Assembly: GCA_964640155.1 (NCBI GenBank)
Contig: CAZXEQ010000003.1
Span: forward strand, 74,189 to 106,188
Source: an uncultured bacterium
GTDB lineage: Bacteria; Auribacterota; JACPWU01
Direction of reading: 5' to 3'
Length of the DNA: 32,000 nt
Shown: positions 2,977 to 32,000 of the stretch, one piece after another
Numbering within the stretch: position 1 is the first letter of the stretch
How the letters are laid out: each line of letters opens with the position of its first letter
Translations under genes and position numbers: made by a program
The notes under the pieces: generated by a model
The model's database searches: none
Seen by the model: only the letters and a program-made list of their open reading frames with translations
Told to the model about the DNA's origin: nothing

Positions 2977-2992
2977 TATGATCTATGTCATA
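2977..2992. promoter_or_regulatory. Palindromic box B, TATGAT-CTAT-GTCATA, upstream of the hemerythrin/nnrS unit
   Basis: One mismatch from the perfect palindrome. Lies 53-68 nt upstream of ATG 3045. Confidence 0.5.
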
Positions 2993-3044
2993 TTAAGATC
3001 TCTGAACTTTTGTTAGTCTCGGTGAAAAAGGAGGCGAATTTGCT

Positions 3045-4783: not shown

Positions 4784-4805
4784 CTTTTCAGTGAGGGTAA
4801 AATAG

Positions 4806-6128: not shown

Positions 6129-6154
6129 ATGTTTGAATATTTCAGGTTTTAAAA

Positions 6155-7399: not shown

Positions 7400-7436
7400 A
7401 ATCTTACCATCTCAATAGTGATACTTTAAAGGAATC

Positions 7437-7694: not shown

Positions 7695-7744
7695 ATTATC
7701 CTCCTTTCCTACGAGTTAATTATGAAGAGATCAGTATCTGAATC

Positions 7745-7762
7745 CTATGATATGGATCATAG
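7745..7762. promoter_or_regulatory. Palindromic box C, CTATGAT-ATGG-ATCATAG, upstream of the small ORF/MFS unit
   Basis: Perfect 7+7 inverted repeat with a 4-nt spacer. Confidence 0.55.
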
Positions 7763-7803
7763 AGATTTAATCGGGCAGATTTAGATGCTGAAACGAGAGT
7801 TGA

Positions 7804-8382: not shown

Positions 8383-8394
8383 AACATCACCTTT

Positions 8395-10799: not shown

Positions 10800-10857
10800 A
10801 GCTTAAAATTTCCGAATAAATTTTTGAGTGATGATAAATGATTGAAATAAATTGAAG

Positions 10858-10873
10858 TATGATTTAGATCAGC
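10858..10873. promoter_or_regulatory. Palindromic box D, TATGAT-TTAG-ATCAGC, upstream of the oxidase operon
   Basis: The core TGAT-N4-ATCA is intact and the outer positions are degenerate. Lies 59-74 nt upstream of ATG 10799. Confidence 0.45.
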
Positions 10874-10883
10874 ATTCTTGTTT

Positions 10884-14571: not shown

Positions 14572-14582
14572 AATGAAGAAAG

Positions 14583-15704
14583 ATGGTTGATGGTATGCCT
14601 TTAAGGGAAAAGATTGTTAAAGCCTTATTATTCATTTCAATTGTGGCAATGGTTTTATCAATCTTTTTCCCTTACTGGCAACTGAAAGTGACAGCTCCTC
14701 AGTATCCTAAGGGGCTTAAAGTTACTGTTTTTTTAAATCATGTGGAGGGCGATGTTGGGGAAATAGATATTCTGAACCATTATATCGGGATGCGCTCTTT
14801 ATCTGAGGCTGCACAGATTGAAAGAAAACTGGCGATGGTTGGCATAGGGTTTATTCTGGTTTGTTTGGTCTTTGCCTTTTTCATATCCAGAAAAAAATTC
14901 TTCTTTTTTTTATTACCTGGTATTTTCTTTCCATTATTTTTTATGGGTGATCTTTATTATTGGTTGCGTGATTTTGGTTTGAATCTTAATCCCCATGCAC
15001 CTTTGAGTTCATCCGTGAAGCCTTTCATACCTCCCCTTTTTGGAATAGGCAAGATTGCTCAATTTCAAGCATTGGCGCAATTTGATACTGGATTCTTTTT
15101 AACAGTTGTTGCTTCAATTCTGATTTTGATTGCTCTTTTCTTAAGATTGGTCTCAAGAAGGAGTTGTTCTGTGGTAACAACAGGGATCATTTTTTTTGTT
15201 TTTATGTTTTCATTAGCACCGAATATTTTTGCCAAAACGATTGTTGTTAATTCCTCCTCTTCCCAAAATCTTCAAAAGGCTATCGATCAAGCAGAATCTG
15301 GGGATATCCTCGATGTTAAAGCAGGTGTTTATGATGGACCGATTCATATTAAAAAATCGATTCATTTAATAGGAGAGGCTTTCCCTATAATTGATGCACA
15401 GGGGAAGGGGAGTGGGGTTTATTTAGAAGCAGCAGATATATTGTTTAAAGGATTTGTAGTTCGAAATACAGGAAATGTCTTGTCCACAGAAGATTCAGGA
15501 CTATGGGCCACGGGAGAAAGGATTTGTATAGAAGACAATCGGTTTGAAAATGTACTTTTTGGAATCTATTTAAAGCAGGCCCCATTCGGTGTGGTCCGAA
15601 ATAATTCTTTAATCAGCAAGCCGCTGGATATTGCTCGTAGGGGAGATCTGATTCGTGTTTGGTGTAGCGATCATGTATTGATTGAAAAGAATTTTGCGAC
15701 GTAA
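14583..15704 (+). CDS. nosD: NosB-like polytopic membrane domain fused to the N-terminal part of NosD; ends at an in-frame TAA
   Basis: ORF track, 373 aa. Residues 1-215 have about 5 TM segments with APQYPKGL and NHYIGM motifs, in the position directly after clade II nosZ where nosB is expected. From KTIVVNSSSSQNLQKAIDQAESGDILDVKAGVYDGPIHI onward it reads as a NosD-type beta-helix start. Confidence 0.65.
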   Translation: MVDGMPLREKIVKALLFISIVAMVLSIFFPYWQLKVTAPQYPKGLKVTVFLNHVEGDVGEIDILNHYIGMRSLSEAAQIERKLAMVGIGFILVCLVFAFFISRKKFFFFLLPGIFFPLFFMGDLYYWLRDFGLNLNPHAPLSSSVKPFIPPLFGIGKIAQFQALAQFDTGFFLTVVASILILIALFLRLVSRRSCSVVTTGIIFFVFMFSLAPNIFAKTIVVNSSSSQNLQKAIDQAESGDILDVKAGVYDGPIHIKKSIHLIGEAFPIIDAQGKGSGVYLEAADILFKGFVVRNTGNVLSTEDSGLWATGERICIEDNRFENVLFGIYLKQAPFGVVRNNSLISKPLDIARRGDLIRVWCSDHVLIEKNFAT

Positions 15705-15713
15705 GGACGGGAT

Positions 15714-17435
15714 GTGGTGCTTTGGTTCTCGAAGAATATGCGAGTTTTGAATAACAAGTTTCAAGAGAGTCGTTATGGTTTGCATTTTATGTATTGTCAG
15801 CAGGCGGTCGTAGAACACAACAAACTTTCTCACAATTCAGTTGGTGCCTATTTGATGTACAGTGCCGGATTACAATTAAGAGAAAATATCATTTTAAACA
15901 ATCGTGGCCCTAGTGGATATGGAATAGGATTTAAAGACATGGATGAAGCGATGATTGAGAAGAATAATGTCATTGGTAATCGCGTTGGTTTTTTTCTGGA
16001 TTCTTGTATGAAGGGTTTATTTTATAACAATATGATTGCCTTGAATGATATTGGGATGCAGGTGATTCCAACTGCGAATAACAATCAATTTTCTAAAAAT
16101 AACTTTATTGAAAATGGAGAACAGATTCTTCTGGATGGTTCCAGTACGCGTACTGTCAATGCATGGAATCACAATCACTGGAGTGATTATCGCGGGTTTG
16201 ATGCAAATCAAGATGGGATTGGGGATGTTGCGTATCATCCTATGAAGCTATTCGAGAGAATTGCTGATCGATATCATACTTTAAAAGTATTTTATGGAAG
16301 TCCTTCTATAGCCGCGATTGATTTTGCTGCATCTACTTTCCCTGTTTTTCAACCAACGTCTAAATTTGTAGATGAGTTTCCAGTGATGCAACCCTTTAAA
16401 TTTTTGGGGATAGAAAAAACACCTTCTCATGTTCTACCTTGGATTCTTTTGTCTGCTGCTTTTTTTCTTCCAATGCTTGGCTTCTCTCAGTCGAGAATAA
16501 AAAGGGAAAACAGCATCGAGTCGACTGCAGAACCTCTTTTAAAAACGGGTACGCAAGTTGTGATACGTACTCAAGGGCTGACAAAACAATTTAAGAAATT
16601 GAAAGCAGTTTCAGATCTTGATTTGGAGATTCGTTTGGGTGAGGTTGTTGCGTTATGGGGCCCTAATGGGGCAGGCAAGACGACTTTGCTTCGCTGTTTG
16701 TTGGGAATCATTCCTTGTGACGGGGAAATGGAGGTTTTGGGAATGGAAGTTCGAAAAAATTCTAAGTTGGTCAGGCGGGCCATTGGATATGTTCCTCAGG
16801 AAATTCGCCTCCATTTAGATCACTCTGTTTTAGACACGGTTCGTTTTTATGCCCGGTTAAGGAGAGTTTCTGATACGCGTGTAGATCAGCTTATTCATGA
16901 GTGGGGATTGGAGGAATCAAAATACAAGCTTGTCCAAAATTTGTCTGGAGGAATGCGTCAGAAACTAGCGGTTGTCATTGCATTACTTTCTGATCCTCCC
17001 ATTCTTTTCTTGGATGAGCCAACCAGTCATTTGGATATAAAGACACGCAGAGAGTTCCTTCATTCTCTTCAGAAACTTAAAAGTCAGGGTAAGACACTGA
17101 TTTTTTGTTCACATCGATGGACTGAAGTTTGTCAAATGGCAGATCGAATTATTGTTTTAGAAGCGGGTGTCAAAAAGAGGGATGGAAAACCTGAAGAATT
17201 TAAGGATTTATTCGCAGAAGAAATTTTAATGAGATTGTCCGTGCAGAATCATTTTCTTAAAGAGGCACAAGAGATCTTAACAAAGCAGGGTTTTAAATTT
17301 TCACAAAGGGAAAATGACCTTTTGATTTTGGTGGGTCAAGCTTCAAAAATAGAACCTATTCGACTGTTGATTCAATCGGGGATTTCTATTCTCAATTTTG
17401 ATATGGATGGCGAGATCAATCATAACATGGGATGA
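15714..17435 (+). CDS. nosF: C-terminal part of NosD (beta-helix repeats), one TM segment, then the NosF ABC ATPase; same frame as 14583..15704
   Basis: ORF track, 573 aa (GTG start). RYGLHFMY, GAYLMYS and GYGIGFKD are NosD repeats. The hydrophobic segment is VLPWILLSAAFFLPMLGF. The ATPase has Walker A GPNGAGKTT, signature LSGGMRQK and Walker B ILFLDEPT. Confidence 0.75.
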   Translation: MVLWFSKNMRVLNNKFQESRYGLHFMYCQQAVVEHNKLSHNSVGAYLMYSAGLQLRENIILNNRGPSGYGIGFKDMDEAMIEKNNVIGNRVGFFLDSCMKGLFYNNMIALNDIGMQVIPTANNNQFSKNNFIENGEQILLDGSSTRTVNAWNHNHWSDYRGFDANQDGIGDVAYHPMKLFERIADRYHTLKVFYGSPSIAAIDFAASTFPVFQPTSKFVDEFPVMQPFKFLGIEKTPSHVLPWILLSAAFFLPMLGFSQSRIKRENSIESTAEPLLKTGTQVVIRTQGLTKQFKKLKAVSDLDLEIRLGEVVALWGPNGAGKTTLLRCLLGIIPCDGEMEVLGMEVRKNSKLVRRAIGYVPQEIRLHLDHSVLDTVRFYARLRRVSDTRVDQLIHEWGLEESKYKLVQNLSGGMRQKLAVVIALLSDPPILFLDEPTSHLDIKTRREFLHSLQKLKSQGKTLIFCSHRWTEVCQMADRIIVLEAGVKKRDGKPEEFKDLFAEEILMRLSVQNHFLKEAQEILTKQGFKFSQRENDLLILVGQASKIEPIRLLIQSGISILNFDMDGEINHNMG

Positions 17436-18274
17436 GATTTTTTATGGACATACGTAACACTTATATTTTGATGACTAAAGAGATGGCAGATGCGAGAAAG
17501 AACCGCTGGTTTGTTGTGATTGCGATTCTTTTTGCTCTCCTTTCACTTTCCTTAAGCCTTTTGGGTCTTTCGGGTTTGGGATCTGTAGGCGTTACAGGTT
17601 TTGGCAGAACAGCTGCGAGTCTTTTGAATCTGGTTCTTTTGATTGTTCCCTTGATGGGACTTTTACTCGGAGCTATGAGTATGGTGGGAGAAAAAGAACA
17701 AGGGACTTTATTGACTTTGCTAGCACAACCCGTGAGCGTATCAGAAATTTTGCTTGGAAAATTTTTAGGGTGTGCAATAGCCATTCTCGTAGCCCTTCTT
17801 TTAGGGTTTGGAGTCAGTGCTCTGGTGATGGGCCGTTATGCTGGAACAGAGCAAATAGGAGATTATCTTATTCTTGTGGGATTTACCCTTCTTTTGGGTT
17901 GGGCTTTTTTGAGCATAGGATTTTTTATCTCCATGTGGACGAAGCGTCATACCATGGCCTTAGGTCTAGCTCTGCTTTTCTGGTTTTTCTTTATTTTTTT
18001 GAGTGATTTGGGCCTTATCGGGACAGCCATTGTTTTGAAACTGACCCCGGGACAAATGCTAGGACTGGTACTGATAAACCCCATACAGTCATTCAAGCTT
18101 GCTGTGGCGGGTGCATTGCAGAAAAGCCTTGAGTCCTTTGGATCGATTGGAATGTATGCCATTCAAGTGTTTGGAGATGGATTGATTTTTATCTTAAGTT
18201 TTCTTTTGGTTTTGTGGCTGATTGTACCTCTTTTTTTGAGTTGGATTTTTTTTAAATCACGGTGTGTGGACTAA
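17432..18274 (+). CDS. nosY: NosY, ABC-2 type permease of the NosDFY complex
   Basis: ORF track, 280 aa, 6 TM segments. ATGA overlap with the preceding NosF frame. Confidence 0.85.
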   Translation: MRFFMDIRNTYILMTKEMADARKNRWFVVIAILFALLSLSLSLLGLSGLGSVGVTGFGRTAASLLNLVLLIVPLMGLLLGAMSMVGEKEQGTLLTLLAQPVSVSEILLGKFLGCAIAILVALLLGFGVSALVMGRYAGTEQIGDYLILVGFTLLLGWAFLSIGFFISMWTKRHTMALGLALLFWFFFIFLSDLGLIGTAIVLKLTPGQMLGLVLINPIQSFKLAVAGALQKSLESFGSIGMYAIQVFGDGLIFILSFLLVLWLIVPLFLSWIFFKSRCVD

Positions 18275-18729
18275 TGAAAAAATTTAAAATTATTTTTCTT
18301 TTATTCTTTTTGACAGGATGTAGCTCTTACCAGACCGGGAAGGTCCCTGAAATTCGGTATGGGCAGGATTTGTGTTCAGAATGCAGAATGACTTTGATGG
18401 ATGCTCCATTTGCCTGCGTTATTTTGACAGAGGATGAGGAAATTTTGAAATTTGATGATATTGCATGTATGGTTCGTTTTGAAAGAAACAATCAAACTAA
18501 AATTAAAGAGGCATGGGTTCACGATTGTGTGACACAAGCTTGGATTCAAAGATCAAAGGCTTATTTTGTTTTTGATCAAACATTAAACACTCCCATGGGT
18601 TCACATCTTATGGCGCTCGGCAGTGAAGAATCAGTACAAGAATGCTTAAAAAAGAATGGTGCAAAGCAGATAGGCTTTGATCAGATAAATGATCTTTTAA
18701 AGGAACAAATTCAAAAGGAGAGAAAATGA
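18274..18729 (+). CDS. nosL: NosL copper-chaperone lipoprotein
   Basis: I prefer ATG 18274 (MKKFKIIFLLFFLTGCSS, lipobox LTGC) to the track GTG at 18262. TAATG overlap with the nosY stop. NosL-type motif CSECRM...FDDIACM. Confidence 0.85.
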   Translation: MKKFKIIFLLFFLTGCSSYQTGKVPEIRYGQDLCSECRMTLMDAPFACVILTEDEEILKFDDIACMVRFERNNQTKIKEAWVHDCVTQAWIQRSKAYFVFDQTLNTPMGSHLMALGSEESVQECLKKNGAKQIGFDQINDLLKEQIQKERK

Positions 18730-19436
18730 AAAAAGTAAATCGTTATGCCTCGTTGTTTTTGATAAGTGTGGGAATGTTTGTTTCTTCAGTTCAGGCGGCG
18801 ACTGTTACAGGAAAAGTGGCTTATGAAGGCGATATTCCAAAACCTAAACCTGTTAGTTTTGGGGCTGAAAAACAATGTGCGGATATGCACAAGGACAAAC
18901 CTGTGATGGCGGAAGATATGGTTATTAATTCCAATCAAACTGTTAAATGGGCCTTAGTGTATGTGAAAGAGGGAGTGAAAGGAGAATTTAAGGCGCCTGA
19001 GCAGTCTGTTTTGATTGATCAGAATGGATGTATTTTTCTTCCTCATGCGGCAGCAGCAATGGTAGGGCAAAAGGTTGCTTTTCAAAATAGTGATGAAGTT
19101 CTTCATAATATTCGTGCTAACAGTAAAATCAATACACCTTTTAACATTGCTCAGCCTTTCAAAGGAATTGTGATGGAACAAGTATTTGAAAAACCTGAGG
19201 TGGGAATCGAACTGGTTTGCGATGTCCATTTCTGGATGAAGTCATATCTTCACGTATTTAATCATCCCTTCTACGCAGTGACGCAAGATGATGGAACTTT
19301 TGTCATTAAGGATTTGCCGGCAGGAAGCTACACCTTAGAAGTATGGCATGAAAAATTGGGCTCTCAAACTCAAGCAGTAACAGTGGCAGAGGGGGATTCC
19401 AAAGAAGTAGTTTTTACTTTGAAAAAATCTTCCTAA
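18726..19436 (+). CDS. Secreted cupredoxin-like (type-1 copper) protein with a C-terminal carboxypeptidase-regulatory-like beta-sandwich
   Basis: ORF track, 236 aa, signal peptide ...VSSVQA. Ligand-like pattern LHNI...CDVHFWM (H...C-x2-H-x2-M). C-terminal DGTFVIKDLPAGSYTLEVWHEKLG. ATGA overlap with nosL. Confidence 0.6.
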   Translation: MKKVNRYASLFLISVGMFVSSVQAATVTGKVAYEGDIPKPKPVSFGAEKQCADMHKDKPVMAEDMVINSNQTVKWALVYVKEGVKGEFKAPEQSVLIDQNGCIFLPHAAAAMVGQKVAFQNSDEVLHNIRANSKINTPFNIAQPFKGIVMEQVFEKPEVGIELVCDVHFWMKSYLHVFNHPFYAVTQDDGTFVIKDLPAGSYTLEVWHEKLGSQTQAVTVAEGDSKEVVFTLKKSS

Positions 19437-20544: not shown

Positions 20545-21756
20545 ATGATCGACCTTACACGTCTTTATTGTAATGAGAAAACAGCAGGTGAGAAAATTCG
20601 TTATGAATGGCGAGAAAAAGAAAAGGATGTACTTCAATCAGCCATGGACCGGCGTCCTGTGGTTGTTTGGAATATGACTAGGACCTGTAATCTGAAATGT
20701 ATGCATTGCTATTCAGATTCAGAAGGTAAGATCTATCCAGGTGAATTAACAACAGATGAGGCTTTGGCTGTTGTTCATGACTTGGCGCAATTTAAAGTTC
20801 CTGCTTTGCTCCTTTCCGGGGGAGAACCCCTTTTAAGAAAAGATCTTTTTTTGATTGCACAAGAAGCAAGACGATTGGGGCTTCGTGTCACTTTATCGAG
20901 TAATGGAACTTTGATCACACGAGAGATTGCCGAGAAAATCAAGGAAGCAGGTTTTATTTATGTGGGTTTGAGTTTGGATGGCATTGGAGAGGTTCATGAT
21001 CACTTTCGAGGTGTCAAAGGTGCTTTTAAAAAAACTCTTTCTGCTATTCGACATTGTAAAGAGGTAGGACAAAAGGTGGGTTTGAGGCTGACCATGACGC
21101 GTCATACCATTCAAAATCTTGATGAAATTTTTAATCTTATGATTACAGAAAAAATTGATAGAGCCTGCTTCTATCATTTGGTATTTACAGGTAGGGGAAG
21201 ATTTTTAAAAGAGGAGGCTTTATCTCGAGATGAATTGCGAGAAGCGATGGATCTCATTATAAAATGGACGAAAAATTTGCATCTTTTAGAAATAAAAAAA
21301 GAAATACTCACTGTTGGAAATCCTGCAGATGGTGTTTATCTTTATTTGAAACTTCTCAAAGAAGGTAGAAAAGACAAAGCACAAGAAGTTCTGGATCTTA
21401 TTACTTTGAATGGTGGAGGTCAGTTTGGTTCAGGTGTAGGGTTAGGATGCATCGACTTTTTTGGAAATGTTCATCCGGATCAATTTTGGATGACCCAGAC
21501 TTTGGGTAATGTGAAAGACAAACCCTTTAGTCAGATTTGGCAAGATGTTAGTCATCCCCTGATGAAGGGATTGAAAAATCGCTTACCTCTTCTAAAGGGA
21601 AGATGTGCTTCTTGCTTTTGGAAGGCTCAATGTGGGGGAGGTCTTCGCACCAGGGGCTATCTTGCGACACAAGATCCATGGGCTGAAGATCCAGGCTGTT
21701 ACTTGTCTGATGAGGAAGTTTTTAATAAATTTGCTACGCGTTCCACAGCATTCTGA
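20545..21756 (+). CDS. Radical SAM protein of the NirJ/AhbC/AhbD family (NirJ/AhbC-like, tentative)
   Basis: ORF track, 403 aa. LTRLYCNEKTAGEKIRY...RPVVVWNMTRTCNLKCMHCYS is a typical NirJ-like N-terminus. C-terminal CASCFWKAQCGGG. Confidence 0.8.
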   Translation: MIDLTRLYCNEKTAGEKIRYEWREKEKDVLQSAMDRRPVVVWNMTRTCNLKCMHCYSDSEGKIYPGELTTDEALAVVHDLAQFKVPALLLSGGEPLLRKDLFLIAQEARRLGLRVTLSSNGTLITREIAEKIKEAGFIYVGLSLDGIGEVHDHFRGVKGAFKKTLSAIRHCKEVGQKVGLRLTMTRHTIQNLDEIFNLMITEKIDRACFYHLVFTGRGRFLKEEALSRDELREAMDLIIKWTKNLHLLEIKKEILTVGNPADGVYLYLKLLKEGRKDKAQEVLDLITLNGGGQFGSGVGLGCIDFFGNVHPDQFWMTQTLGNVKDKPFSQIWQDVSHPLMKGLKNRLPLLKGRCASCFWKAQCGGGLRTRGYLATQDPWAEDPGCYLSDEEVFNKFATRSTAF

Positions 21757-22106
21757 ATTTCCGGAATATTATAAGGTTTATTAATAAATTCTGCAGCACC
21801 TTCCTTAATAGATTCCGCATACACCCCCCAATCACCGAAAGCAGTAATTAAAATAACATAAGTTTTAGGAGAATGCTTTTTTGTATATTTTAAAACTTCA
21901 AGACCATCGACTTTGGGCATACTGACATCTGTAAAAACAATATCAAAATTGTTTTGATGAATCAGTTTTAAAGCTTCTTCAGATTCGGTGGAGACTTTCA
22001 CATCTCGACCTTCCGCTTTTAAAATGGTATGTAAAATTTCAGCCTGCTCAGCATTATCGTCGATGACAAGAATTTTTAAAGGCTTCATATCTATCTCCCT
22101 TTCCAC
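21699..22106 (-). CDS. Stand-alone response-regulator receiver (CheY-like)
   Basis: ORF track, 135 aa. VIDDN acidic pocket, FTDVSMPKVDG phospho-acceptor Asp, ILITAFGD, KPY Lys. Confidence 0.85.
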   Translation of the reverse strand: MEREIDMKPLKILVIDDNAEQAEILHTILKAEGRDVKVSTESEEALKLIHQNNFDIVFTDVSMPKVDGLEVLKYTKKHSPKTYVILITAFGDWGVYAESIKEGAAEFINKPYNIPEIQNAVERVANLLKTSSSDK

Positions 22107-22330
22107 AGTTATTGTAACATAGCAAATTAAATTTGAATTAATGATATAGAAACTTAGTGCAAGGTAGAAGTTTTTATTTTTAAGTTTTTTAATTTATTCT
22201 ATAACTTATTTATTAAGAGGTAATTACAAATTATTTATTATATGGGCTATTTGTCTTTTGAGCTATTTTGTGCTATGTTAACTAAAGTGTGTAAGGGGAA
22301 ACTGAGGTGGGTAACTAGGGGAGTTTTTTA

Positions 22331-25300
22331 ATGAGAAGTGGTAGCTCTTTCTGGCATGTTTTTTTTAGAAAAATAAATTCTTGGATTATCATTTTTTCAT
22401 TTCTTTTAAGTTCTATTCCAGAACTTAATGAACCACTTTGGGCTCAAACAACTTTTTCCAAAAATGCCTTACCTGCTCAAATATTTTCTCCTGAAACTTT
22501 TTCTCATTCTTGGTCTAAAAAAATCAATTCTCTAGAAACTCCAGATTTAGATTTGGGTGAAATTTATCAGGGACAAACGAATGTGGGTATTTTTTTAATT
22601 CGTGACCTGCATTGTCAGCCACAAGCTCAACTTAAAGTTGCCAGAGGAATAGAAAAATTTTGTGAATTAGCAGGCGTTTCAAAAGTTTTTATAGAGGGAG
22701 CAAGTGATGAGATCAACATGGATCTTTATCAAGCATTTCCTGATGCAAAAATTAGGCATCTTGTGGCGCTTCATTTTTTAGAAAAAGGATATCTTACGGG
22801 ACCTGAATTTTTAAGCATGGAAATGGGAAATAAAAGTCAGTTTAAACTTTACGGGGTTGAAAACTCAAAGCTATATTTAGAAAATTTTGACGCTTTTCAA
22901 AAAATAAAATCTTTTTATAAGAAAAATAAAAAGATTATTGAACAAGTGAGTGAAAAGTTAAAAAGTTTAAAAAAAGAAAAAATTTCGAAAAATTTAAATA
23001 ATTTTATGGATCAATGGGAGGCTTGGCAGAATGGTGAGCTGAGTTTGCCTGATTTTCTTGCCAGAGTGGAGCCGTTAATTAAAGAGAAGGGTCAGAATAT
23101 TGAAGGAAGCCAGAAGATTTTAAAATGGTGTTCTTGGATAAAAGAAGCCAAGGGTTTAAATAGTCCAAAAATCCAACAAGAGCTTAATTCCTTCTTGCAT
23201 GAAATGGAGAAAAAACTGACTCAAGAATCTTTGAAAAATCTTGCCCCCTATCGGGGACTATCCTTACAGGACTATCTCTACGAGACTGCAAAAGCCCGTA
23301 AAAGATTGAAAAATCTTGTTGAGAAAACTTTGAAATATCGCTTGGGAAAAATCTCGCCAAAAAGTTATTTAGAGTATGTGAAGAGGCTTTATGAGAATCA
23401 TACCCAATCCTCTAAAAGTTTTGATCAAGCGTTTTCTGCCTTGGCTTTCTGGTATGTGTCTTTGGAGGAAGGGGAAGAGATGAAGCGTTCGAATATTTCA
23501 AAGATATTAAACCGTGTGATGGATGATTTAACGGATCAATGGGCAAAAGAAGAGGGATCTCAAGCCTTTATCGCTTTGTATAAGGATTGGGAATTATTAA
23601 AAAAAGGATTTCGATTGGAATTTGAGCGAAATGAAAGAAGGCAATTTTCTTTGTGGATAAAGAAAACAGGTTGGAAAAATTTTAGTAAAGATTCTCAAGA
23701 ATTAGGGATTGTTCTAGATGAAGAAAACTTTGAAAAAATCATTCAGAATATAGATCAATTTTATGATCTTGCCATCAAGCGTGATCATGTGATGGTGAAT
23801 AATCTTTTGAAAAAAGTGAAACAACCCACAATCCACCATCCTCAAATCACTGTTTTAATTGCTGGGGGTTTTCATACAGAAGGAATTCAAAGACTGCTTA
23901 AAAAGAAAGGGATTTCTTACGCTGTTTGGACACCCAAGATGACAGGCGAATTTGATAATCATCTTTATGAAGAAAGAATGATTGAACAGGCTCGTGCGGT
24001 GAGGTCCAGTTCTGCGAGTTTCTCATTTGATCGTAAACGAATAATAACCCCTCCACCTCCCCTTAAATTAAGGGGAGTGAAAATGAAAGAGGAAGACTCC
24101 CCTCTTAAATTAAGAGGGGTGGGGGGAGTTATATCAAAAAAAGTAGAAAAGCTTTCTGCTGCTTTGATTTTGGATAATATTTTGGAGATGTTAGGAAAAG
24201 AGGCCTTTGATCAAGCAACGTTTCGACATCGGGTTGAGATTTTAAGAAGATTAATGCAAGACTTGAGACGGGATGTCATTGCGAGGGAAGCTGATTTATC
24301 GGCTGACCGAAGCAATCTTGTTTTAGAAGACGAGATTGCTTCGCCTACGGCTCGCAATGACACGCGAGCTAGCCAGGGAAATTATTTTTCCGTGAATGAG
24401 GTTGTCGAAACATGGCTTGCTGAAATACGTGGGGAAGAAAAAAATATTTTAGGAAAAATGCAATGGGATGACATTCGTCTCCTTTTTGAGGCTTTGGATC
24501 CGGAAGGGGTTATGGCGGATGATCAATTTGATCCCAATAATGAAATTCAAAGAGGATTATATATAGAAGCTGTTGAACAGGCTTATGGAGAATTATTTCC
24601 CGCCCGCGTTGCGTTGACTAAGGCTTATTTTGATTTGCGATCTCAAAGGGAAGAGGCTGACGCTTCAGAAGTTTCTCCAGATGGAGTTCGTATTTATCGA
24701 GGGAAAGAGACTTTGGAGCTTCTAGGGATGGATTATCCAGAATTTCAAAGATTTATTAGGGCTCTTCTGGCCTTTGAAGAAGAGATCAAAAACGACTCTC
24801 TTTTTATCGCTGCTTCGAGTCGATTGATTTCTATGAGAACTGGGTGGCGTATGGCACAAGATGTTTTAGAAATGACTAAGAAATTTAAGGATATGGAAAT
24901 AAAGAATCCTTTGGGATATGCCTTAATATATGCTTTTGAAAATAATTATTCTGATTTGCTCGACTCTATGGCTGTTGGAGACCAGATGATTCGCGTTTTT
25001 ATAACGCACTGTGCTTTATGGTTGGGGGCTGACTTTTTTGATAGAACTCAGCATGCTGAAAGAAATATTTTGAGAATATGGTATAAAATTCAGAAAAATG
25101 GAACTTTAAGTTATGTTGAAGAAAAAGTCGCTCGTGCTCTCATGGGCAATAAACCTGTTCTTTTTGAAGAAGAGCCAGGATCAGATCCAGAACTTATGGA
25201 AGCCGTTCATTTTTTTGGAAAGGATGCACAGATCAGTGAGATTCACCTTCATCCTTTTACAGATGATGCGCATTTGATGGGACGGCGAATTCCAAGAGAG

Positions 25301-28096
25301 CAAGGTGAAGGACTTGAATATGGTTATGGAGAGATTTTAAGAGCTGTTGAAGCGGCTCGAAAGAATCCAGGCAAAAAACATATTCTTATTTTTAAAAATG
25401 TGGAAGCCATGGAACCCGGAATCAGAACCATGCTTCAAGAGATTTTGAGAATTCGTGAGATTCGAGATCCACATTTGGGAGGATCAGTAAGGTTGCCAGA
25501 CAATATTCAATTTCTTTTTACAATGGAAAAGGGAGTGAATTTGGAAGATGACTCCTTTCTGGATCGTGTGTTGATTAAAGTTATTCAGTCCAATAATCCT
25601 CAAAAAGAGGAAGAAATCCAAATTTCGTTAAATCCCCCTCTTGAATCAAGAGGGGATAGGGGAGTTAATGAAGATGTAACCCCTCTAACTTCTCTTGATC
25701 CAAGGGGAGAGATTGAAGTTAAAGAGGGAAAACTCATTCTGGCAGGAACTGAAATTCTCCTTGCTGAAAAATTTCACGATTTAACTTCAGAAAATTTACA
25801 TGACGAGCTTTACAAGCGTTTGGGTCTTATTCTAGATGAAGAGACCATTAAAATGTTGATCGCTATGCAAATGATGGTTAATCAACATAAGCCCATCTTA
25901 AGAATTGAAGGAGCTTCTGGAGTTGGAAAAACATTTACAGCTCGCGCATTTGCATCTTTGACCGGAAGAGACTTTTCTTCCAATCCTGTGAATCGAGCCA
26001 CAGATATTTCTGAATTTATTGGAGGATATGAAGCCAATGAAGAAGGAAATTTTAAATTTAATCCTCGTACTCTTTTTAGAGAAGTGCTTGAAAAGGGAGG
26101 TGTGATTGCTTTAAGCGAGCTCAATGCCTTAATTGATGAAAATGATAAAGTGAGTTTAGCTTGGTGGCTTCAGCAATTGGCAGAGTCTAAGCCAGACGCA
26201 GAGGGTTTTCGTACGATTTATTTAACGGAACTACCTACAGCAGCTGGAAAATTTAAGCGTTCTGAGCTTGATAAAATTCGAGTTTCTCCAAAAGCTTTAG
26301 TCATTATTGATACCAATCCTGAAACAAATTATGGGGCACGTGGAACTTTCCCCAAAAGATTTAAAGAAGCAACGCCGGTTTTGAAAATTGGGGAATTTAT
26401 TCAACAAGAAAAAGTTTCCCCTCCCTCAATTTCCACCCCCCTCACCCAACCTCTCCCACCAGGGGAGAGGGGACAGCCTGAAATTTCTGATGCTGCGCAG
26501 AAAAATCTAAAGAAAATCCAGCAACATTTAAATCTCTTTTTAAAATTCCCATGGGAAGTGGAAGGCAAAATCATTTCTGAGGGAATTACAGATGATCTAG
26601 AGCGCAACGAACTTTCTGAAAAGCTCGCAACTCTTTTTAATAAAATTGTTCAGGCCTATTTAAGTCAAGATCTGGGTAAAGACGAAGATATTATTTTTAC
26701 TAAGAGAGAATTGAAACGTTTGGCTGAAGATGTGATGTACGCTAAAAAAGTTTTAAAAAAATCTCATGACGAAGCTTTAATGTATGGAGCTAGGATTCAT
26801 TTGGTCTCTCGATGGAAGAAGCAAACAGATCGTGACAAGGCGTTAGAAATCATTGAAGCAGAATTCGCAAAGGGGAGAGCTCCTCCCAGTCTGGCTCCCA
26901 AAAATCTCCAAGAATTTATTCTGGATCAAAGTATTGATAAAAACAGAACGGTACATGTCTATGCAGAACCTCAAACAGATGTTGCAAAAGAATTAGAAAA
27001 ATTAAAAGCTGCGCGTCCCAATTTACGTGTAGTTGTAATTCCTGCCACAGATGAAACCGATCGTTTCATGTTGGAAGGAGGATTTATTCCAACTGAAGCA
27101 GGTGGGATGGCCTTAGCTCGTGGGGTATTGGGACGTTTAATTCATGCTGCCAACAATGCTCCTCCTGGAGAAGAAGTTCTTTATGTGCTCGATAACGCAC
27201 ATAATATCCCTCCTCAAGAAATTATAGCTCTCAATGAATTTTTGCAAGACCGCCTTTTAAAAATTAAAGGCAGAAATGAAGGGAAACTTCCTCTCAATGC
27301 ACATATTCTTTTCTTAAGCCGTCAGGATTCAGAAACAACCTGGTCTCAGGCTGAACAATCTCGAGCAGTTCCCTACGGTTATTCTCCTTCCTATGATTTT
27401 AGACAAGAATTTGTTGAACAAATTAAAACGAAAGCTCTTGATTGGAATCCTTACGCAGAGAAATTTTATAATGTTTTGTCTGAGTTTGAACGCAAATATC
27501 GAGAAGTATTAGAAGATAAAGGTGAAGCTTACCGAGGCAGAATTTCAGATGCCAGGTGGAAAGCGTTTCTAGAGCGTGTTGTGTTCTGTGCTGGGCATAC
27601 ACGCGTTGAAGATTATTCAAGCTTGATTCGAAGGATAGAAGAAGAGCTCGATCTTTTTTATCTGCGTGGACTAGACAATGCAAGTATTCAGTTACCCTTA
27701 GAACAATTGCGTACAGGTTTTCGATCGGTGCAGTATTTTGTGAATCAGGATGTGGAAAAAAGGAAAAGAGAAGAGAGAGTGATTCAGGGTCAAGGAAAAG
27801 GGGGCTCGGAACAAAAAGAAATTCAAGAAGAAAGTGTTTATGAGAGCGTGGTTCGTTTGCAAGCTGAAATTGCAACCAGTGAGCCAGAGGCAAGAGAAAG
27901 ATTTGCTCGAGAATTAGCGACATTTATGAATAAGAAAAGCAACGATGTGGAATGGGTAGAAATTTTTGGCATTCATAAGATTGATTTAAAACCTGGAGAT
28001 TTGTTCTATTCGAATCCTGAAGAACTTGAAGAAACACGTATGGGTATAGTCATAACTGAGTCAAGATGCCTTTCTACTGGAGACGGCAATGAGATA
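22331..28096 (+). CDS. ORF A, 1,921-aa protein: N-terminal signal-anchor, about 500-aa N-terminal domain, helical regions and three AAA_5 (MoxR/dynein/midasin-like) ATPase modules
   Basis: Not in the ORF track. I translated every codon from ATG 22331 (GGGGAG 7 nt upstream, in-frame TAG at 22316..22318) and found no stop until TAA 28094..28096. Key motifs are GASGVGKT (25910..25933) and LVIIDTNPETNYGARGTFPKRF (an AAA_5-like sensor region). Confidence 0.8.
24044..24132. repeat. Palindromic element E1, translated in frame in ORF A (ITPPPPLKLRGVKMKEEDSPLKLRGVGGVI)
   Basis: Inverted termini ATAACCCCTCC / GGGGGGAGTTAT. Two internal palindromes, CCCCTTAA-A-TTAAGGGG and CCCCTCTTAA-A-TTAAGAGGGG. GC-rich relative to the flanks. 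Confidence 0.7.
24275..24361. repeat. Palindromic element E2 (87 nt), translated in frame in ORF A (VIAREADLSADRSNLVLEDEIASPTARND)
   Basis: Nested inverted repeats. Outer pair GTCATTGCGAG (24275..24285) / CTCGCAATGAC (24351..24361). Inner pair CGAAGCAATCT (24308..24318) / AGATTGCTTCG (24333..24343). Confidence 0.75.
25631..25712. repeat. Palindromic element E3 (E1 family, rearranged halves), translated in frame in ORF A (LNPPLESRGDRGVNEDVTPLTSLDPRGE)
   Basis: CCCCTCTTGA-A-TCAAGAGGGG (25635..25655), followed by GGGGAGTTA, a short spacer, TAACCCCTC and a degenerate second palindrome. Confidence 0.6.
25910..25933 (+). other. The only canonical Walker A (GASGVGKT) in ORF A
   Basis: gga gct tct gga gtt gga aaa aca, read in the ORF A frame. 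Confidence 0.8.
26436..26474. repeat. GC-rich hairpin element E4, translated in frame in ORF A (PLTQPLPPGERGQ)
   Basis: CCTCTCCC-acca-GGGAGAGG (26450..26470), embedded in a C-rich then G-rich tract. Confidence 0.55.
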
Positions 28097-29616
28097 AGTT
28101 TCCACGAAATTTCTGAAATTGTAACATTAGTAGTCCCCATACCTAAAATCACTCGCGAAAATTTTTATGATGAAGTCAGGCGGCGTCAGGAAGAAATGAG
28201 GACGACCAATGATTTGGTATACAAAAAGAGATTGGTGGCAGAGCTGAAATGGATTTTAGATAAATATGGTGATAAAGGTGAATGGGTTGAAGCAAGGCAA
28301 GAACAAGAAGCTTTGAATAAAGGAGATATTTTTGATTCCACTGAGGTTGTGAGCAAGGCTTTGCCTTTTCATTTTCCTGAAGGGGGAATAGTGGCATGTG
28401 AGAGATATCAAGATAAATTTGTGGTAGCGGATACCAACGGAAATATTTTTATGCTCGACACTCAAGATCCACAAGGAAAGTTAGTGCCGCATGCTTACAA
28501 AGGAGAGGGAATTTTAAAGATGCGAGTCAACGGGGATAAGCTTTGGATCATTACAGATGAAGAAAAGCTTACAAGTATCGATTTATCCAATTCAAAAAAT
28601 CATTTAAAAAAAATAGAAAATCATTCGGGCGTACGCTCTCTTGCTACGTTTGATGGAAAAATGATTGTTGGAAAGAATAACGGAGAGGTTTGGATTGAAA
28701 GTGAAGTTTCTAAATTCTTTCCAAAGGGGTTTAGAGAGTGGTTTGAAAGATTTGATGCTGGGGCTACGCCTGTGCCTAAGTTTAGATTGAGATTATTTGA
28801 AATTCTGGCAGAAGGCACTTTGCGATTGTTTAAATTTTTCAAAAGGGTTCTAGGTCTTCCTCTTAAGAAAGTAGGCAAGTTTAAAGGAAATATCTCTGCA
28901 ATATATACGATAGAAAATCAGTTGTTGATTGTAGGAATGAATGGAGAATTAGAAATTTGGACGCCTCGAAAGAGTTGGCTAAGGTTTGTTAGCCCATTTG
29001 AGAAAAGGGTATTAAGAAAGGGCCAGAATAAAGATTTCTCAATCATTGCTTCTGAATTAATAGGGGATCGGCTATTTGTACGAAGTTCAGGGCATGAAAT
29101 TCTTTCATTTGATTTAAAAACTCCTCAAATAGGATTTACTCTTCTTGGAAAAGTAGAGCCTGGTCCCGCTGCTCTTTTTGCCTGGGGAAATAAGCTTGTC
29201 ATTCCAGAATACGATGGATCTTTAAAAGTATGGGATACTGAAAAACCTGAAATAGGATTGCAAAGAGTAGCTTCTTATGAAGCAGGTTTTGCTCTAACGG
29301 CAGTACCGCTAGGCGATAGACTGATGATAGGAGGCGGTCGTGAGTTACAAGTCTATGAAGCCAATCCACGAGGGGTGATGGTAGATGATCAAAATTTTGT
29401 TTCGATGGCGAGTGGAGAGATTTATTCCCGTAAAGATTTATCTACTGAAGTAACTTTGCGTTTGCCCATGCCTCAGGTTGATCCGGAAAATCTTCTTCAG
29501 AGAATTCAAGAACTACAAAAAGAAATCCATGCAAGTACTCCTACTCAAAAAGAAATAATAGCAGCAGAGTTAATTTATAGGATAAAACATTCGTTCTCGA
29601 CAGGCTCGAACAGTGA
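28066..29616 (+). CDS. ORF B, 516 aa: linker, small beta segment and a 7-bladed WD40-like beta-propeller; possibly a frameshifted continuation of ORF A
   Basis: Not in the ORF track. The frame is -1 relative to ORF A. ATG 28066 follows TGA 28057..28059. All codons were checked and the frame is open to TGA 29614..29616. Blades include ADTNGNIFMLD, GKNNGEVWIE, GMNGELEIWT, EYDGSLKVWD and GGGRELQVYE. Confidence 0.7.
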
Positions 29617-29639
29617 TAGCCTTCGGGCGGAGTCGAGAA
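29594..29639. repeat. Palindromic element E6 (46 nt) carrying the ORF B stop codons
   Basis: Inverted termini TTCTCGAC (29594..29601) / GTCGAGAA (29632..29639). Inner pair GCTCGAA / TTCGGGC. Contains TGA TAG at 29614..29619 in the ORF B frame. Confidence 0.75.
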
Positions 29640-29641
29640 GT

Positions 29642-32000
29642 TTGAAAGTTGATGTAGAAAGCGTAGAGTGGATGGAATTTGATGCAGAGAAAAAGGATTT
29701 AAAAGTAGGCGATGTGATCAAAGTAAAGAATGTGATGGGACAATTTTCTGATCATTCTGAGGGTAATACCATTTTATGTAGTGCCGTTCTTCCCGATGGA
29801 AGACTACTGACTGCGGGATGGGGTTCTGTAGAGATTTATGATTCTAAAAATCCCAACAAACCATCAGTCAAAATCGTTCATTCTTCTTCTCCTTTTCAGG
29901 CTTTGGGTCTTTTACCTAATAATCGATTTGTAACAGGAGAAGCGGATGGAACTATTACGATCTATGACTTTCAGGGAAATGTTATTTGGAGTAAGAAGTT
30001 TCTACATCCACTAAGAGCCTTAGGAGTGCTTTCAGATGGGCGTATTGTGGCGGGTGGAACATGGGGGAAAATGACAGTTTATAATCCTAGTGATCCTAAG
30101 GATGAAGGAGAAAGCTTAAGCGGTTATGATGGGACGATTCATGATATTCAAGTTCTTCCAGATGATTCCATTGTTGTCGTAGGCGCTGGAGGATATGTTA
30201 AAAAGTTTGAACTCAAAGCCGGGTCAACTCCGCAATCTTTGGGTCGATATTATCAGTATGATGGTAGACAAATTATTTATAAGACAAGGCGTTTATCCAA
30301 TGGCCATTATGTAGTTGTTGGAGAAGGTGGGGCTATTAAAATTTGTGATCCCAATTATCCAGACAGTGAACCTATTCTGGTCGGCCATTATGGAAAAGAT
30401 GTTCACGCTCTTGAAATTTTGCCGGACGATACCATTGTAGTGGGTGGAGATGGAGGAGAAATTTTAGCTTTTGAACCCAAAGAAAATGCAAAACCTCATA
30501 AATTTGGAAATTATGGGAATGATATTAACATGATTCGCTATTCACCTGCGGATGGAAAGATTTTGATAGGTGGAAGAAATGGAGTGTTAGCGTTTATTGA
30601 AAAAGAGATGGTAGGAGTGATGTGCAGTGAAAAAGATTTCGTAAGCCCTATGGGTAAAAAATATTCTTTAGATCAAGTTTCTACAGATCAAGCCAAAGTG
30701 TTCATTCCAATTCCTCATGTCACCGATGAAAATTTCTCAAGTGCAGTCACTCGCTTGCAAGCTGAGATTAAAACAGCAGAAGGGGCTGAAAAGAAGAGAT
30801 TAGCTGAGGTTCTCATGCATGTTTTGAGGAAAGGGAAACCTGCCCAAAGAAAAGATGGATCCCCGATAGATACACTCGGGGATGACAAACACTCTGTACC
30901 ACTGTCATTCCCGAAGGCTTTTATCGGGAATCCATTAGAAGATAAAAAATGGATTCAGTCCCAACAAAAGAAAGAAGAGCTAGGAGTGGGAGATGTTTTC
31001 AAGACTGAAGGGGTGTTTGTAGAAAGAGTTTCTATATCAGACCGATCACGCACAATAACAACTCAAGCTGTCTTACCCGATGGACGTATTGCTTATGGTT
31101 TTGCAGATGGGTGGGTTGAATTGTGGGATCCTAAGAAACCCCATTTGGGATTTAAAAGAATAGGACAATATGCTGTAGGAAGAGGCAATCAGGAAATCAC
31201 GGTTTTAAAAGTTGTGGCAGGAAAATTATTAATTGCTGGGAAGGCTGGATATCTTGAAGTGTGGGATCCGGAACAGCCTACTCAAAAACCTTGGTGTTTG
31301 GGAGATTACAAAGAAGAAATTTATGCGATTGAAGAATTAGATGGGGAAATTTTTGTCGGTGGGAAAGGAGCAGTTATTCGATATTGGACTTTGGAAGATT
31401 TAAAAAATAAAAAAGAGATTCAGGGAGAAGTTTTGGGACAGTATGGGCATGAATTTAGCAGTGTTTTTAGTTTTCTTGTTGTGGATGGAAAACTTGTAAT
31501 AGGGGGAGGTGTTCAACTAGAATTTTGGGATTCACAAGAGCCAGAGAAAAAAATTCAAAGTACAGCAATGCATGAAGGAGCCACACACGCTTTGCAATAT
31601 TTAGATGGGAAAATTGTTGCTCTTGATTCAAGTGGGCATATCCGTTATTGGGATAAATCTTCTTTGTATGCTCAAGAATCCCAAGTCCCTTATCCTATTG
31701 GAGAGTATGGTATGAAAGCTGAAGCAATGAAGGTTTTGGATGGGAAGTTGTATGTGGGAGGATATGGAGGAGAACTTAAAGTATGGGATCCAGAGAGCTC
31801 ACGAAAAGGTCTGCACAATATATTTCAGTATCAAAATGATGAAGGAGCAAAACCCGGAACAATGAATTATATTACAACTATTTCATATCTTGAAATAGTA
31901 AACGGTCGTTTGTCTATCATAGGCTCCTCTAACGGTGTTGGTGGGGTTACTCTCTTAGAATTTTCTCCAACCGGTGTGGTGAATAGCAAGAATACTTTTA
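29642..32000 (+). CDS. ORF C (partial, open at the window end): two further linker plus 7-bladed propeller modules; start uncertain (TTG 29642 or ATG 29672)
   Basis: Not in the ORF track. The frame opens after TAA 29570..29572. All codons to nt 31999 were checked with no stop. Blades include VLPDGRLLTAGWGSVEIYD, GEADGTITIYD, VLPDGRIAYGFADGWVELWD, GYLEVWD and GELKVWD. Confidence 0.7.
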   Translation, partial: MKVDVESVEWMEFDAEKKDLKVGDVIKVKNVMGQFSDHSEGNTILCSAVLPDGRLLTAGWGSVEIYDSKNPNKPSVKIVHSSSPFQALGLLPNNRFVTGEADGTITIYDFQGNVIWSKKFLHPLRALGVLSDGRIVAGGTWGKMTVYNPSDPKDEGESLSGYDGTIHDIQVLPDDSIVVVGAGGYVKKFELKAGSTPQSLGRYYQYDGRQIIYKTRRLSNGHYVVVGEGGAIKICDPNYPDSEPILVGHYGKDVHALEILPDDTIVVGGDGGEILAFEPKENAKPHKFGNYGNDINMIRYSPADGKILIGGRNGVLAFIEKEMVGVMCSEKDFVSPMGKKYSLDQVSTDQAKVFIPIPHVTDENFSSAVTRLQAEIKTAEGAEKKRLAEVLMHVLRKGKPAQRKDGSPIDTLGDDKHSVPLSFPKAFIGNPLEDKKWIQSQQKKEELGVGDVFKTEGVFVERVSISDRSRTITTQAVLPDGRIAYGFADGWVELWDPKKPHLGFKRIGQYAVGRGNQEITVLKVVAGKLLIAGKAGYLEVWDPEQPTQKPWCLGDYKEEIYAIEELDGEIFVGGKGAVIRYWTLEDLKNKKEIQGEVLGQYGHEFSSVFSFLVVDGKLVIGGGVQLEFWDSQEPEKKIQSTAMHEGATHALQYLDGKIVALDSSGHIRYWDKSSLYAQESQVPYPIGEYGMKAEAMKVLDGKLYVGGYGGELKVWDPESSRKGLHNIFQYQNDEGAKPGTMNYITTISYLEIVNGRLSIIGSSNGVGGVTLLEFSPTGVVNSKNTF
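30857..30933. repeat. Palindromic element E5, translated in frame in ORF C (DGSPIDTLGDDKHSVPLSFPKAFIGNP)
   Basis: Two inverted hairpin units: GGATCCCCGA...TCGGGGATGAC (30857..30886) and GTCATTCCCGA...TCGGGAATCC (30904..30933). Confidence 0.7.

Follow-up and report, generated by a model that had tools for sequence, protein, structure and literature searches.

A giant gene of an uncultured Auribacterota bacterium joins the N-terminal head of a large unnamed protein family to three AAA_5 modules and WD40-like propellers

A single giant open reading frame

The window analysed here is a 32,000-nucleotide (nt) stretch of DNA from an uncultured bacterium of the phylum Auribacterota (lineage JACPWU01; GenBank assembly GCA_964640155.1, contig CAZXEQ010000003.1, positions 74,189 to 106,188 of the forward strand). 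Positions 22331-32000 of the window are the 5' 9.7 kb of one giant protein-coding gene. The predicted product starts with a hydrophobic helix and a conserved domain, referred to hereafter as the head, and continues with three AAA_5 modules and an array of WD40-like propellers (Table 1). An initial annotation of this DNA, made from the sequence alone, had instead described a locus of three open reading frames (ORFs), A, B and C, in frames 2, 1 and 2.

The stop-codon map of the + strand shows one gene. Frame 2 (the phase of position 22319) has its last stop, a TAG, at 22316 and none from there to 32000. From 21500 onward there are 306 stops in frame 1 and 247 in frame 3, and frame 1 is interrupted by a stop roughly every 14 codons. 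Translation of 22319-32000 gave 3,227 stop-free codons with the first methionine at 22331 (MRSGSSFWHVFF...), and the ORF that starts at this ATG is at least 3,223 codons long and still open at the window end. At the stop frequency of the other two frames (7-9%), the chance of an open run of 3,223 codons is 1e-103 to 1e-134. The lengths reported for A, B and C (1,921, 516 and 786 amino acids, aa) sum exactly to this single 3,223-aa frame, in which there is no frame change. In an independent assembly, Logan contig SRR8893623_49788 (12.8 kb), the giant gene is also a single call (3,244 aa), cut by the contig end 62 nt past the end of the window.

An operon-like set of three genes, one for a 1,921-aa anchored triple-AAA protein and two for propeller proteins, would have a parallel at the related locus L002 described below, where one ORF encodes the head and AAA modules (P0055) and a second ORF, overlapping it in a different frame, encodes the propellers. 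For the present sequence, however, this arrangement is refuted by the stop-free run of frame 2 from 22316 to 32000, the closed frame 1 and the single gene on the Logan contig, and we regard it as extremely unlikely. Re-translation did confirm that the + strand is open almost end to end from 22331, without a stop in frame 2. It is likewise true that the ORF list has no + strand entry after 21756, because the gene runs off the window end and such ORFs are not listed. Reassignment of a stop codon as the cause of the absent entry was ruled out; the frame is open under the standard bacterial code.

Table 1. Features of the giant gene and of the adjoining DNA (positions in the window; aa, residues of the giant protein)
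Feature	Coordinates	Strand	Evidence
Single-domain response regulator, 135 aa, divergently transcribed from the giant gene	21699..22106	-	Pfam Response_reg E 4.4e-27
Ribosome-binding region: GGGGAG (Shine-Dalgarno-like), 7-nt spacer, ATG at 22331	22313..22330	+	Sequence, stop map
Single giant ORF, 3,223 codons or more, cut by the window end	22331..32000	+	Stop map, translation
Hydrophobic helix at the N-terminus, aa 5-28, either a signal-anchor or a signal peptide that is not cleaved	22343..22414	+	AF2 model, family hydrophobicity
Conserved N-terminal family domain (head), aa ~60-560	22508..24010	+	Alignment A1, AF2 model, homologues
Two perfect small palindromes, CCCCTTAAATTAAGGGG and CCCCTCTTAAATTAAGAGGGG, encoding PPPLKLRGV...SPLKLRGVGG, in the linker after the N-domain	24050..24130	+	Sequence
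Region between N-domain and AAA modules, aa ~600-930, no family match	24128..25120	+	Pfam
Nested palindromic element, 89 nt, in frame, 12/12 outer arms TGTCATTGCGAG/CTCGCAATGACA, encoding ...READLSADRSNLVLEDEIASPTARNDT	24274..24362	+	
AAA_5-like module 1, aa ~935-1090	25133..25600	+	Homologue Pfam matches, hhalign, model
Palindromic element, 71 nt, 31-nt arms, 77% complementary, encoding PLESRGDRGVNEDVTPLTSLDPRG, in the linker between AAA modules 1 and 2	25637..25707	+	
AAA_5 module 2, aa ~1180-1350	25868..26380	+	Pfam AAA_5, alignment
AAA_5-like module 3, aa ~1535-1685	26933..27385	+	hhalign, P0056 Pfam match, model, Foldseek
First linker region, aa ~1830-2009, by eye two copies of the ~130-aa linker unit	27818..28357	+	Internal BLAST
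Propeller 1, aa ~2010-2346, seven blades	28358..29368	+	Manual parsing
Linker unit 2, aa 2347-2479	29369..29767	+	Internal BLAST (2326-2399 matches 2739-2813, E 7e-6)
Propeller 2, aa 2480-2759, seven blades	29768..30607	+	7 matches to the blade hidden Markov model (HMM), Pfam
Linker unit 3, aa 2760-2907	30608..31051	+	Internal BLAST
Propeller 3, aa 2908-3202, seven blades	31052..31936	+	7 blade-HMM matches, Pfam beta-propeller
Start of a fourth linker unit, GVVNSKNTF, resembling GVMVDDQNF (unit 2) and MVGVMCSEKDF (unit 3)	31937..32000	+	

The N-terminal head

Three motifs that had been quoted as brackets of an N-terminal domain of about 500 aa are present in the protein (IFLIRDLHC at aa 87, VFIEGAS at aa 119 and ITVLIAGGFHTEGI at aa 506), and the domain is conserved across homologues. 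In the AlphaFold model of the head (pLDDT 80, pTM 0.70), a helix spans aa 5-28, and aa 29-58 form a low-confidence or disordered tether. This helix and the hydrophobic segment found in relatives bear out the signal-anchor that was proposed for the start of ORF A. The head itself has a small alpha/beta core, with strands at aa 73-79, 85-92, 118-121, 172-175, 505-512 and 529-535, into which about 310 aa of purely helical structure (aa ~180-495) are inserted. Residues H94, Q100, E122-G123, E177, Y182, R484, G512-G513-x-H515, S529, P535 and Y546 are invariant in an alignment of 17 head sequences (A1), and H94, Q100, E122, R484 and G512-G513-x-H515 are invariant in a second alignment of 29 sequences (A3) as well. 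Pfam and NCBIfam contain no model of the head. The helical insertion (22868-23815) gave marginal matches to the EF-hand pairs of centrin and calmodulin in a PDB profile search with the full N-domain (E ~0.01), and one family member matched Pfam EF-hand_8 (E 0.002); these EF-hand signals are not significant.

A resemblance of the head to ChaN/TraB-like folds had been put forward with low confidence. PF04187 (ChaN, Tiki superfamily) was matched by two of the 17 full domains (best E 0.013) and, after the insertion had been spliced out, by five of the 29 cores (best E 0.0017), all below the 27.7-bit cut-off. The query core gave E 0.15, with KRD...GGFH on profile positions 160-204. PF04187 is the only Pfam family matched by more than one member of the core alignment. 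When the head model was compared with the PDB by Foldseek, 3b55 and 2rad, which we take to be EreA-like structures, appeared at ranks 2, 8 and 16 (E 0.21-0.69), with 3b55 at rank 2 (E 0.21). Profile searches against PDB sequences found nothing with the spliced core and nothing relevant with the full N-domain.

The TIKI/TraB/PrgY/GumN-ChaN (PF04187)-erythromycin esterase superfamily would share with the head a small alpha/beta core, a His motif (IQDAHC), a Glu (EGA), an Arg (KRD) and a C-terminal GGxH, and the His...Glu...Arg...GxxH pattern resembles the active or metal site of this superfamily. In contrast, the ~310-aa helical insertion of the query core is not known there, no match is significant, and the head always follows a membrane anchor, at the front of very long chains. 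The proposed resemblance draws weak support from the recurrent PF04187 signal and the second rank of 3b55, but every match lies below threshold; a ChaN/TIKI-like head is plausible, not established.

If the head were a TIKI/TraB-like metalloprotease, the giant protein might be a polyprotein whose precursor is cut at low-complexity linkers, so that the AAA block and the propellers act separately. Such a role would suit the invariant His, Glu, Arg and GGxH, PF04187 as the sole recurrent Pfam signal and the disordered linkers between the domains, which tolerate insertions. Self-cleavage is also proposed, in passages of the preprint by West-Roberts et al. (bioRxiv 10.1101/2023.11.21.568195), for other giants that carry N-terminal C39 or S8 peptidases. 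In the present case all ChaN/Tiki matches are below threshold, the fold search is not significant (E 0.21) and no cleavage-site motif was identified in the protein. Moreover, ChaN itself is a haem-binding protein and not a protease, and a polyprotein seems improbable to us.

A large family defined by the head

A search with the whole protein returned 54 proteins of 1.8-5.6 thousand amino acids (kaa) from Omnitrophota, Elusimicrobia, Endomicrobium and Ca. Theseobacter exili. All but one (53 of 54) match only query aa ~6-699, mostly to ~540-580, at their own N-termini and with 20-33% identity (BLAST), and BLASTP against these 53 over aa ~10-580 gave E 2e-66 to 1e-17. The 54th, P0054, matches the AAA region only. 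The remainder of the relatives carries phosphoglucomutase (PGM), PGK, PFK, SecA, PEP-utilising enzymes, HEAT repeats, HATPase and radical SAM among other domains; the query has 2,660 aa or more behind its head, with the AAA_5 modules and the propellers.

The A1 profile, run against 1.84 billion cluster representatives, matched 10,241 of them at E<=1e-3, and 7,303 passed E<=1e-30. Most members are 1-7 kaa long. The 150 best-scoring matches listed (537-6,910 aa) all have the domain at or near the N-terminus, and in nearly all of them it is at the extreme N-terminus, with the match starting within the first ~70 residues. At least 568 loci among the GTDB species representatives encode the head, often several per genome, mainly in metagenome-assembled genomes of Omnitrophota, Elusimicrobia and Auribacterota. 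The nearest head relatives, with 27-29% identity, are in Ca. Theseobacter exili (29%) and Auribacterota, followed by Omnitrophota and Elusimicrobia.

The gene belongs to a very large unnamed family whose members consist of an N-terminal anchor, the head of about 500 aa and a member-specific payload, and which is spread over Omnitrophota, Elusimicrobiota, Auribacterota and uncultivated bacteria related to them. The initial annotation had called the combination unrecognized and unexplained. As a class it is not, since the head places the protein among the anchor-plus-N-domain giants, and this membership bears out the remark that the giant ORFs of uncultivated lineages are the relevant context.

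Three AAA_5 modules with one intact P-loop

The full-length search missed three strong homologues of the AAA region, which were found by a dedicated search with aa 881-1920: P0055 (1,697 aa, JGI 3300033143), P0056 (Elusimicrobiota, partial) and P0057 (Omnitrophota, partial). Over aa ~783-1684 their identity to the query is 35-41% (BLAST), and they were aligned with it to examine the three modules.

The whole protein matches Pfam AAA_5 with 46.3 bits (cut-off 22) in two stretches, and the segment of module 2 alone with 30.4 bits. Module 2 has the sole intact Walker A motif (GASGVGKT at aa 1194). Its Walker B position reads VIALSELN (Ser-Glu), the same in all four aligned sequences, and TNPE and ARG are conserved. 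Walker A is lost in module 1 (PVLFEEEPGSDPELM) and in module 3 (RTVHVYAEPQTD), where the Walker B positions read LIFKNVEAME and YVLDNAHN, respectively; neither the query nor any of the three homologues has a P-loop in these two modules, and the hhhhDE form of Walker B is absent from all three modules in the alignment of four sequences. AAA_5 is nevertheless matched in the homologues, by module 1 of all three (E 3e-5 to 5e-4, from profile positions 17-28 to 125-138) and by P0056 module 3 (E 0.008). The homologue matches begin at profile positions 17-28, that is, they cover the domain minus its P-loop. Homology between modules 1 and 3 was shown by hhalign (probability 96%, E 3e-9). With the shallow profiles of four sequences, hhalign found no link of module 2 to either of them, and its kinship to modules 1 and 3 therefore rests on the Pfam AAA_5 matches and the fold search.

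The AlphaFold model of aa 900-1700 (pLDDT 67, pTM 0.46) contains three similar beta-alpha-beta domains. Its Foldseek matches were motor domains of dynein and the ring of Rea1/midasin (E 6e-17 to 1e-15, probability 1.0), over about 1,000 alignment columns including gaps. The best matches were dynein-1 (E 5.8e-17) and the Rea1 ring 6hyp (E 1.5e-16), with TM-scores of just 0.25-0.30, which are low because the inter-domain geometry is uncertain. Pfam, hhalign and Foldseek together agree with the initial annotation in that three AAA_5 modules are concatenated here, and they support three modules of the dynein/midasin type, of which only one would be able to be catalytic.

Dynein heavy chains and midasin/Rea1 likewise concatenate several AAA_5 modules in one polypeptide, some of them degenerate and non-hydrolysing. 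They differ from the query in having six modules; within the window, beyond which the gene continues, the query chain has only three (aa 935-1685), followed by linkers and propellers. No linker, stalk, microtubule-binding domain (MTBD) or metal ion-dependent adhesion site (MIDAS) elements of the dynein/Rea1 kind were detected in the query, which has a single P-loop with a Ser-Glu Walker B, is bacterial and membrane-anchored, and is fused to propellers. MoxR/RavA-type AAA+ ATPases share the Pfam family AAA_5 with the query. MoxR proteins have a single AAA module, form homohexamers and are encoded beside a VWA protein, whereas here three modules are fused and domain searches of the ORF and the neighbouring genes in the window found no VWA domain or gene. 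The statement that the usual MoxR partner is not seen therefore holds, but for the window only, as the gene extends further.

An array of WD40-like propellers

The second half of the available protein is built from a repeated unit that begins near aa 1830, 2330 and 2740 and consists of a linker of about 130 aa without a family match, followed by a propeller. In the internal BLAST comparison, aa 1830-1920 match 2382-2499 and 2797-2870, and aa 1899-1950 match 2348-2393 and 2756-2806. As had been proposed, there are three complete WD40-like seven-bladed propellers. An HMM of the blade, built from the query sequence itself, found seven blades each in propellers 2 and 3 and five of the seven seen by eye in propeller 1, and Pfam matches were obtained as well. 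Those of propeller 1 to beta-propeller families are weak (E 8e-4); propeller 2 reached 42.2 bits against the WD40 cut-off of 27, and E 1.2e-11 with Beta-prop_EML_2. Two scans with PF00400 (WD40) gave 32.7 and 42.2 bits against the same cut-off. Only this generic repeat model passes; domain-specific propeller models are all far below their cut-offs, and the repeat matches in NCBIfam are also below threshold. Because the residues at the window end (GVVNSKNTF) resemble the earlier linker starts, the propeller array continues past the window.

Tandem seven-bladed WD40-like propellers are also found in eukaryote-like WD40 arrays (the EML, WDR3 and TEP1 propellers in Pfam). The query differs from these in that each propeller is preceded by the repeated ~130-aa linker domain without a family match. 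The propeller half has no close relative in a collection of 5.8 billion proteins, where one generic WD40 match was obtained, and the last 380 aa of the window ORF have no relative in the GTDB representative genomes.

Blade 3 of propeller 1 contains a strongly basic, amphipathic insertion of about 50 aa (28730-28870, aa 2134-2180; FREWFERF...FRLRLFEILAEGTLRLFKFFKRVLGLPLKK, with KRVLGLPLKK). This could be a membrane- or nucleic-acid-binding helix.

Many bacterial conflict systems, STAND/NLR-like as well as ternary ones, have the general plan of an NTPase with WD40 arrays behind it. The locus might accordingly be read as a conflict or defence system, either of the MoxR-VWA type or as an NTPase with a WD40 sensor (NLR/STAND-like), in which an invader would be sensed by the propellers and an effector set off by the ATPase. 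We consider this very unlikely. None of 5,027 PADLOC models was matched at E<=0.01, the ATPase is an AAA_5 of the dynein/midasin type and not a STAND NACHT or NB-ARC domain, the window holds no VWA or effector domain, and other members of the family carry metabolic enzymes.

A second locus with the same architecture

P0055 shares the head (aa 18-572) and all three AAA modules with the query (38% identity), and ends just after AAA module 3. At its locus, L002, it overlaps by 40 nt (6113-6152), in another frame, with an ORF that encodes 6,218 aa or more. Multiple WD40 propellers are present in the 3,346 aa of this ORF that were examined (Beta-prop_THOC3 1.5e-62, Beta-prop_EML_2 7e-59, WD40 1e-28). 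The overlap may be a true two-gene split, a frameshift error or a site of programmed frameshifting.

That head, three AAA_5 modules and WD40 arrays occur together again in a lineage with no more than 38% identity speaks for a functional unit. Since the L002 locus totals at least 7,900 aa, the gene described here probably extends far past the window. Few proteins carry the AAA-plus-propeller payload: three AAA homologues were found, and WD40 arrays come after the AAA modules in the one for which downstream DNA is available.

Predicted topology

Among 186 family members that start with methionine, the most hydrophobic 19-residue stretch begins at residue 15 (median), and 87% have an N-terminal hydrophobic segment with a Kyte-Doolittle (KD) value >1.6. 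The mean net charge is +3.4 before this segment and -0.6 after it. The more positive side is the N-terminus in 95% of the 186 members and in the query, which by the positive-inside rule predicts an N-in orientation with the bulk of the protein exported. A paradox runs through the whole family, in that export is predicted and the payloads depend on ATP, S-adenosylmethionine (SAM) or sugar phosphates. The same tension between topology and payload is remarked on for the giant proteins of Omnitrophota in passages of two preprints (10.1101/2023.11.21.568195 and 10.64898/2026.06.07.730766).

Taken at face value, the charge pattern would make the product an exported surface or effector protein with a Sec signal or a type II anchor, whose propellers adhere to or bind a host or prey, or which is delivered into a cell that supplies the ATP. 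The N-in, C-out pattern in 95% of the 186 members is as expected for such a protein, and the propeller arrays, which lack close homologues, would fit fast-evolving interaction surfaces. Furthermore, parts of the same two preprints propose that Omnitrophota giants exert their action on host or prey cells, and predict most of them to be extracellular or associated with membranes (10.64898/2026.06.07.730766, 10.1101/2023.11.21.568195). However, the family payloads are typical cytoplasmic enzymes (PGM, PGK, PFK, SecA, HATPase, radical SAM, and AAA_5 here), and Pfam and NCBIfam searches of the 3,223 aa found no secretion-system, adhesin, Ig-like or dockerin domains. An exported protein of this kind is unlikely, though we give it some weight.

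A membrane-tethered ATPase as the preferred reading

In our judgement the window probably contains the 5' part of a giant head-family gene that carries three AAA_5 modules and a propeller array, with a membrane-tethered ATPase mechanism that we infer for its product. The head would tether the protein to the cytoplasmic membrane and may also act as a ChaN/TIKI-like hydrolase or processing domain. The AAA block of three modules could be a half-ring, probably pairing with that of a second copy into a ring of six modules like that of dynein or Rea1. Turnover of ATP at the single active site, in module 2, might then move or remodel partners held by the propeller platforms.

Several points weigh against this reading. 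The ChaN/TIKI-like matches of the head are sub-threshold everywhere. With Ser-Glu at the Walker B position of the sole P-loop module, ATP hydrolysis is not assured, and the formation of a ring is conjecture, given the pTM of 0.46 and the TM-scores of 0.25-0.30 of the model. The charge pattern at the N-terminus is the one that marks signal peptides and type II anchors, and it predicts that the bulk of the protein is exported. This conflicts with an ATPase, as there is no ATP outside the cell, so that either the topology prediction or the mechanistic reading would be incomplete.

The preferred reading can be extended to the whole family. The head would then be a universal module for biogenesis, processing or tethering, maybe derived from a ChaN/TIKI hydrolase and carrying a helical insertion of 300 aa, with which certain uncultivated bacteria make and deploy thousands of different giant fusions, and the present member would be a membrane-tethered mechanoenzyme of the dynein/midasin type, in which a half-ring dimerises into a six-module ring and drives a chain of propellers. 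We think it unlikely that this extended idea is right. To our knowledge, no such membrane-tethered dynein/midasin-type machine has been described in bacteria.

Relation to giant proteins already described

Giant genes of Omnitrophota are described in passages of the preprint by West-Roberts et al. (bioRxiv 10.1101/2023.11.21.568195), with domains that include AAA_5, HEAT, HATPase and sugar-phosphate enzymes and with N-terminal regions in which, as a rule, no domains can be recognized. Sections of a second preprint (bioRxiv 10.64898/2026.06.07.730766) sort Omnitrophota proteins that reach 10 kaa or more into multi-enzyme clusters, tandem-repeat scaffolds, to which giants with WD repeats belong, and dockerin types; membrane topology is discussed there as well. 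A term search of the main texts of the two preprints found no mention of the conserved head or of a triple-AAA_5-plus-propeller payload. As far as these texts go, the giants they describe resemble the present protein in that each is encoded by one very long ORF, that the N-terminus has a signal or transmembrane segment, and that unrelated domains, AAA_5 among those listed, form a mosaic with WD-repeat arrays, in the same or neighbouring phyla. They differ from it in that they were defined by length (at least 10 kaa or at least 30 kaa) and that no conserved N-terminal domain is named in those texts, whereas the head of about 500 aa recognized here occurs in more than 10,000 cluster representatives. 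Giant multidomain proteins are already described as a kind, and the present head-plus-payload combination is a variant within that known, uncharacterized kind.

The giant genes of Omnitrophota-like bacteria are among the least understood features of uncultivated microbial genomes. A head without a Pfam model unites a family that counts over 10,000 cluster representatives and is present several times per genome, and the boundaries, invariant residues and good structural model of this head provide a handle to find, classify and eventually test giant proteins. The fusion of a three-module ATPase of the dynein/midasin type to propellers, present in a second, divergent locus also, is rare and would be a small tractable system for the origin of concatenated AAA+ rings. 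The conflict between family-wide predicted export and payloads of the cytoplasmic, ATP-dependent type is a question that a localisation experiment could address directly.

Linkers and in-frame palindromes

The hairpin-forming palindromes of the giant ORF (Table 1) all lie in linkers between domains and are in frame, encoding peptides such as PLKLRGV and IASPTARNDT. Similar peptides, LRGAPTGRRSNL...EIATAPSGPRND and RSNLEIRQIASVSPRNDK, occur in the N-domains of two homologues. At the site of the 71-nt element, the query is longer than the AAA homologues in the alignment. An extra insertion at aa 1359-1384 (QEKVSPPSISTPLTQPLPPGERGQP) is missing in all AAA homologues. The region that precedes the AAA modules is conserved in P0055-P0057 from aa ~783 onward (BLAST and alignment).

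Neighbouring genes

Upstream of the giant gene, and separated from it by an AT-rich spacer of 224 nt, is the gene for a response regulator. The initial annotation had called its product a divergent CheY-like receiver; its Response_reg match is an ordinary one (E 4.4e-27). Nothing supports a functional link between the response regulator and the giant gene. The 3' ends of the response regulator gene (- strand, ending at 21699) and of a radical-SAM gene (+ strand, ending at 21756) overlap convergently by 58 nt (21699-21756). This radical-SAM gene is the second of two that, with a nosZ-nosD/F-nosY-nosL cluster, occupy the + strand farther upstream (Pfam).

The nos cluster (12580-19436) has an unusual layout. 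NosZ (663 aa) is followed by a 373-aa ORF without a Pfam match (14583-15704) and by a 573-aa ORF in which the C-terminal part of NosD (profile positions 43-212) is joined to a NosF-like ABC ATPase; NosY, NosL and a protein with a CarboxypepD_reg domain come after it. Positions 2061-12344 encode a hemerythrin, NnrS, an outer-membrane porin of the alginate-export type, an MFS transporter, the haem-copper oxidase subunits I-III (COX1, COX2 and COX3, in one operon) and an NMO-like oxidoreductase, a gene set that indicates a diderm organism predicted to be able to respire O2 and N2O.

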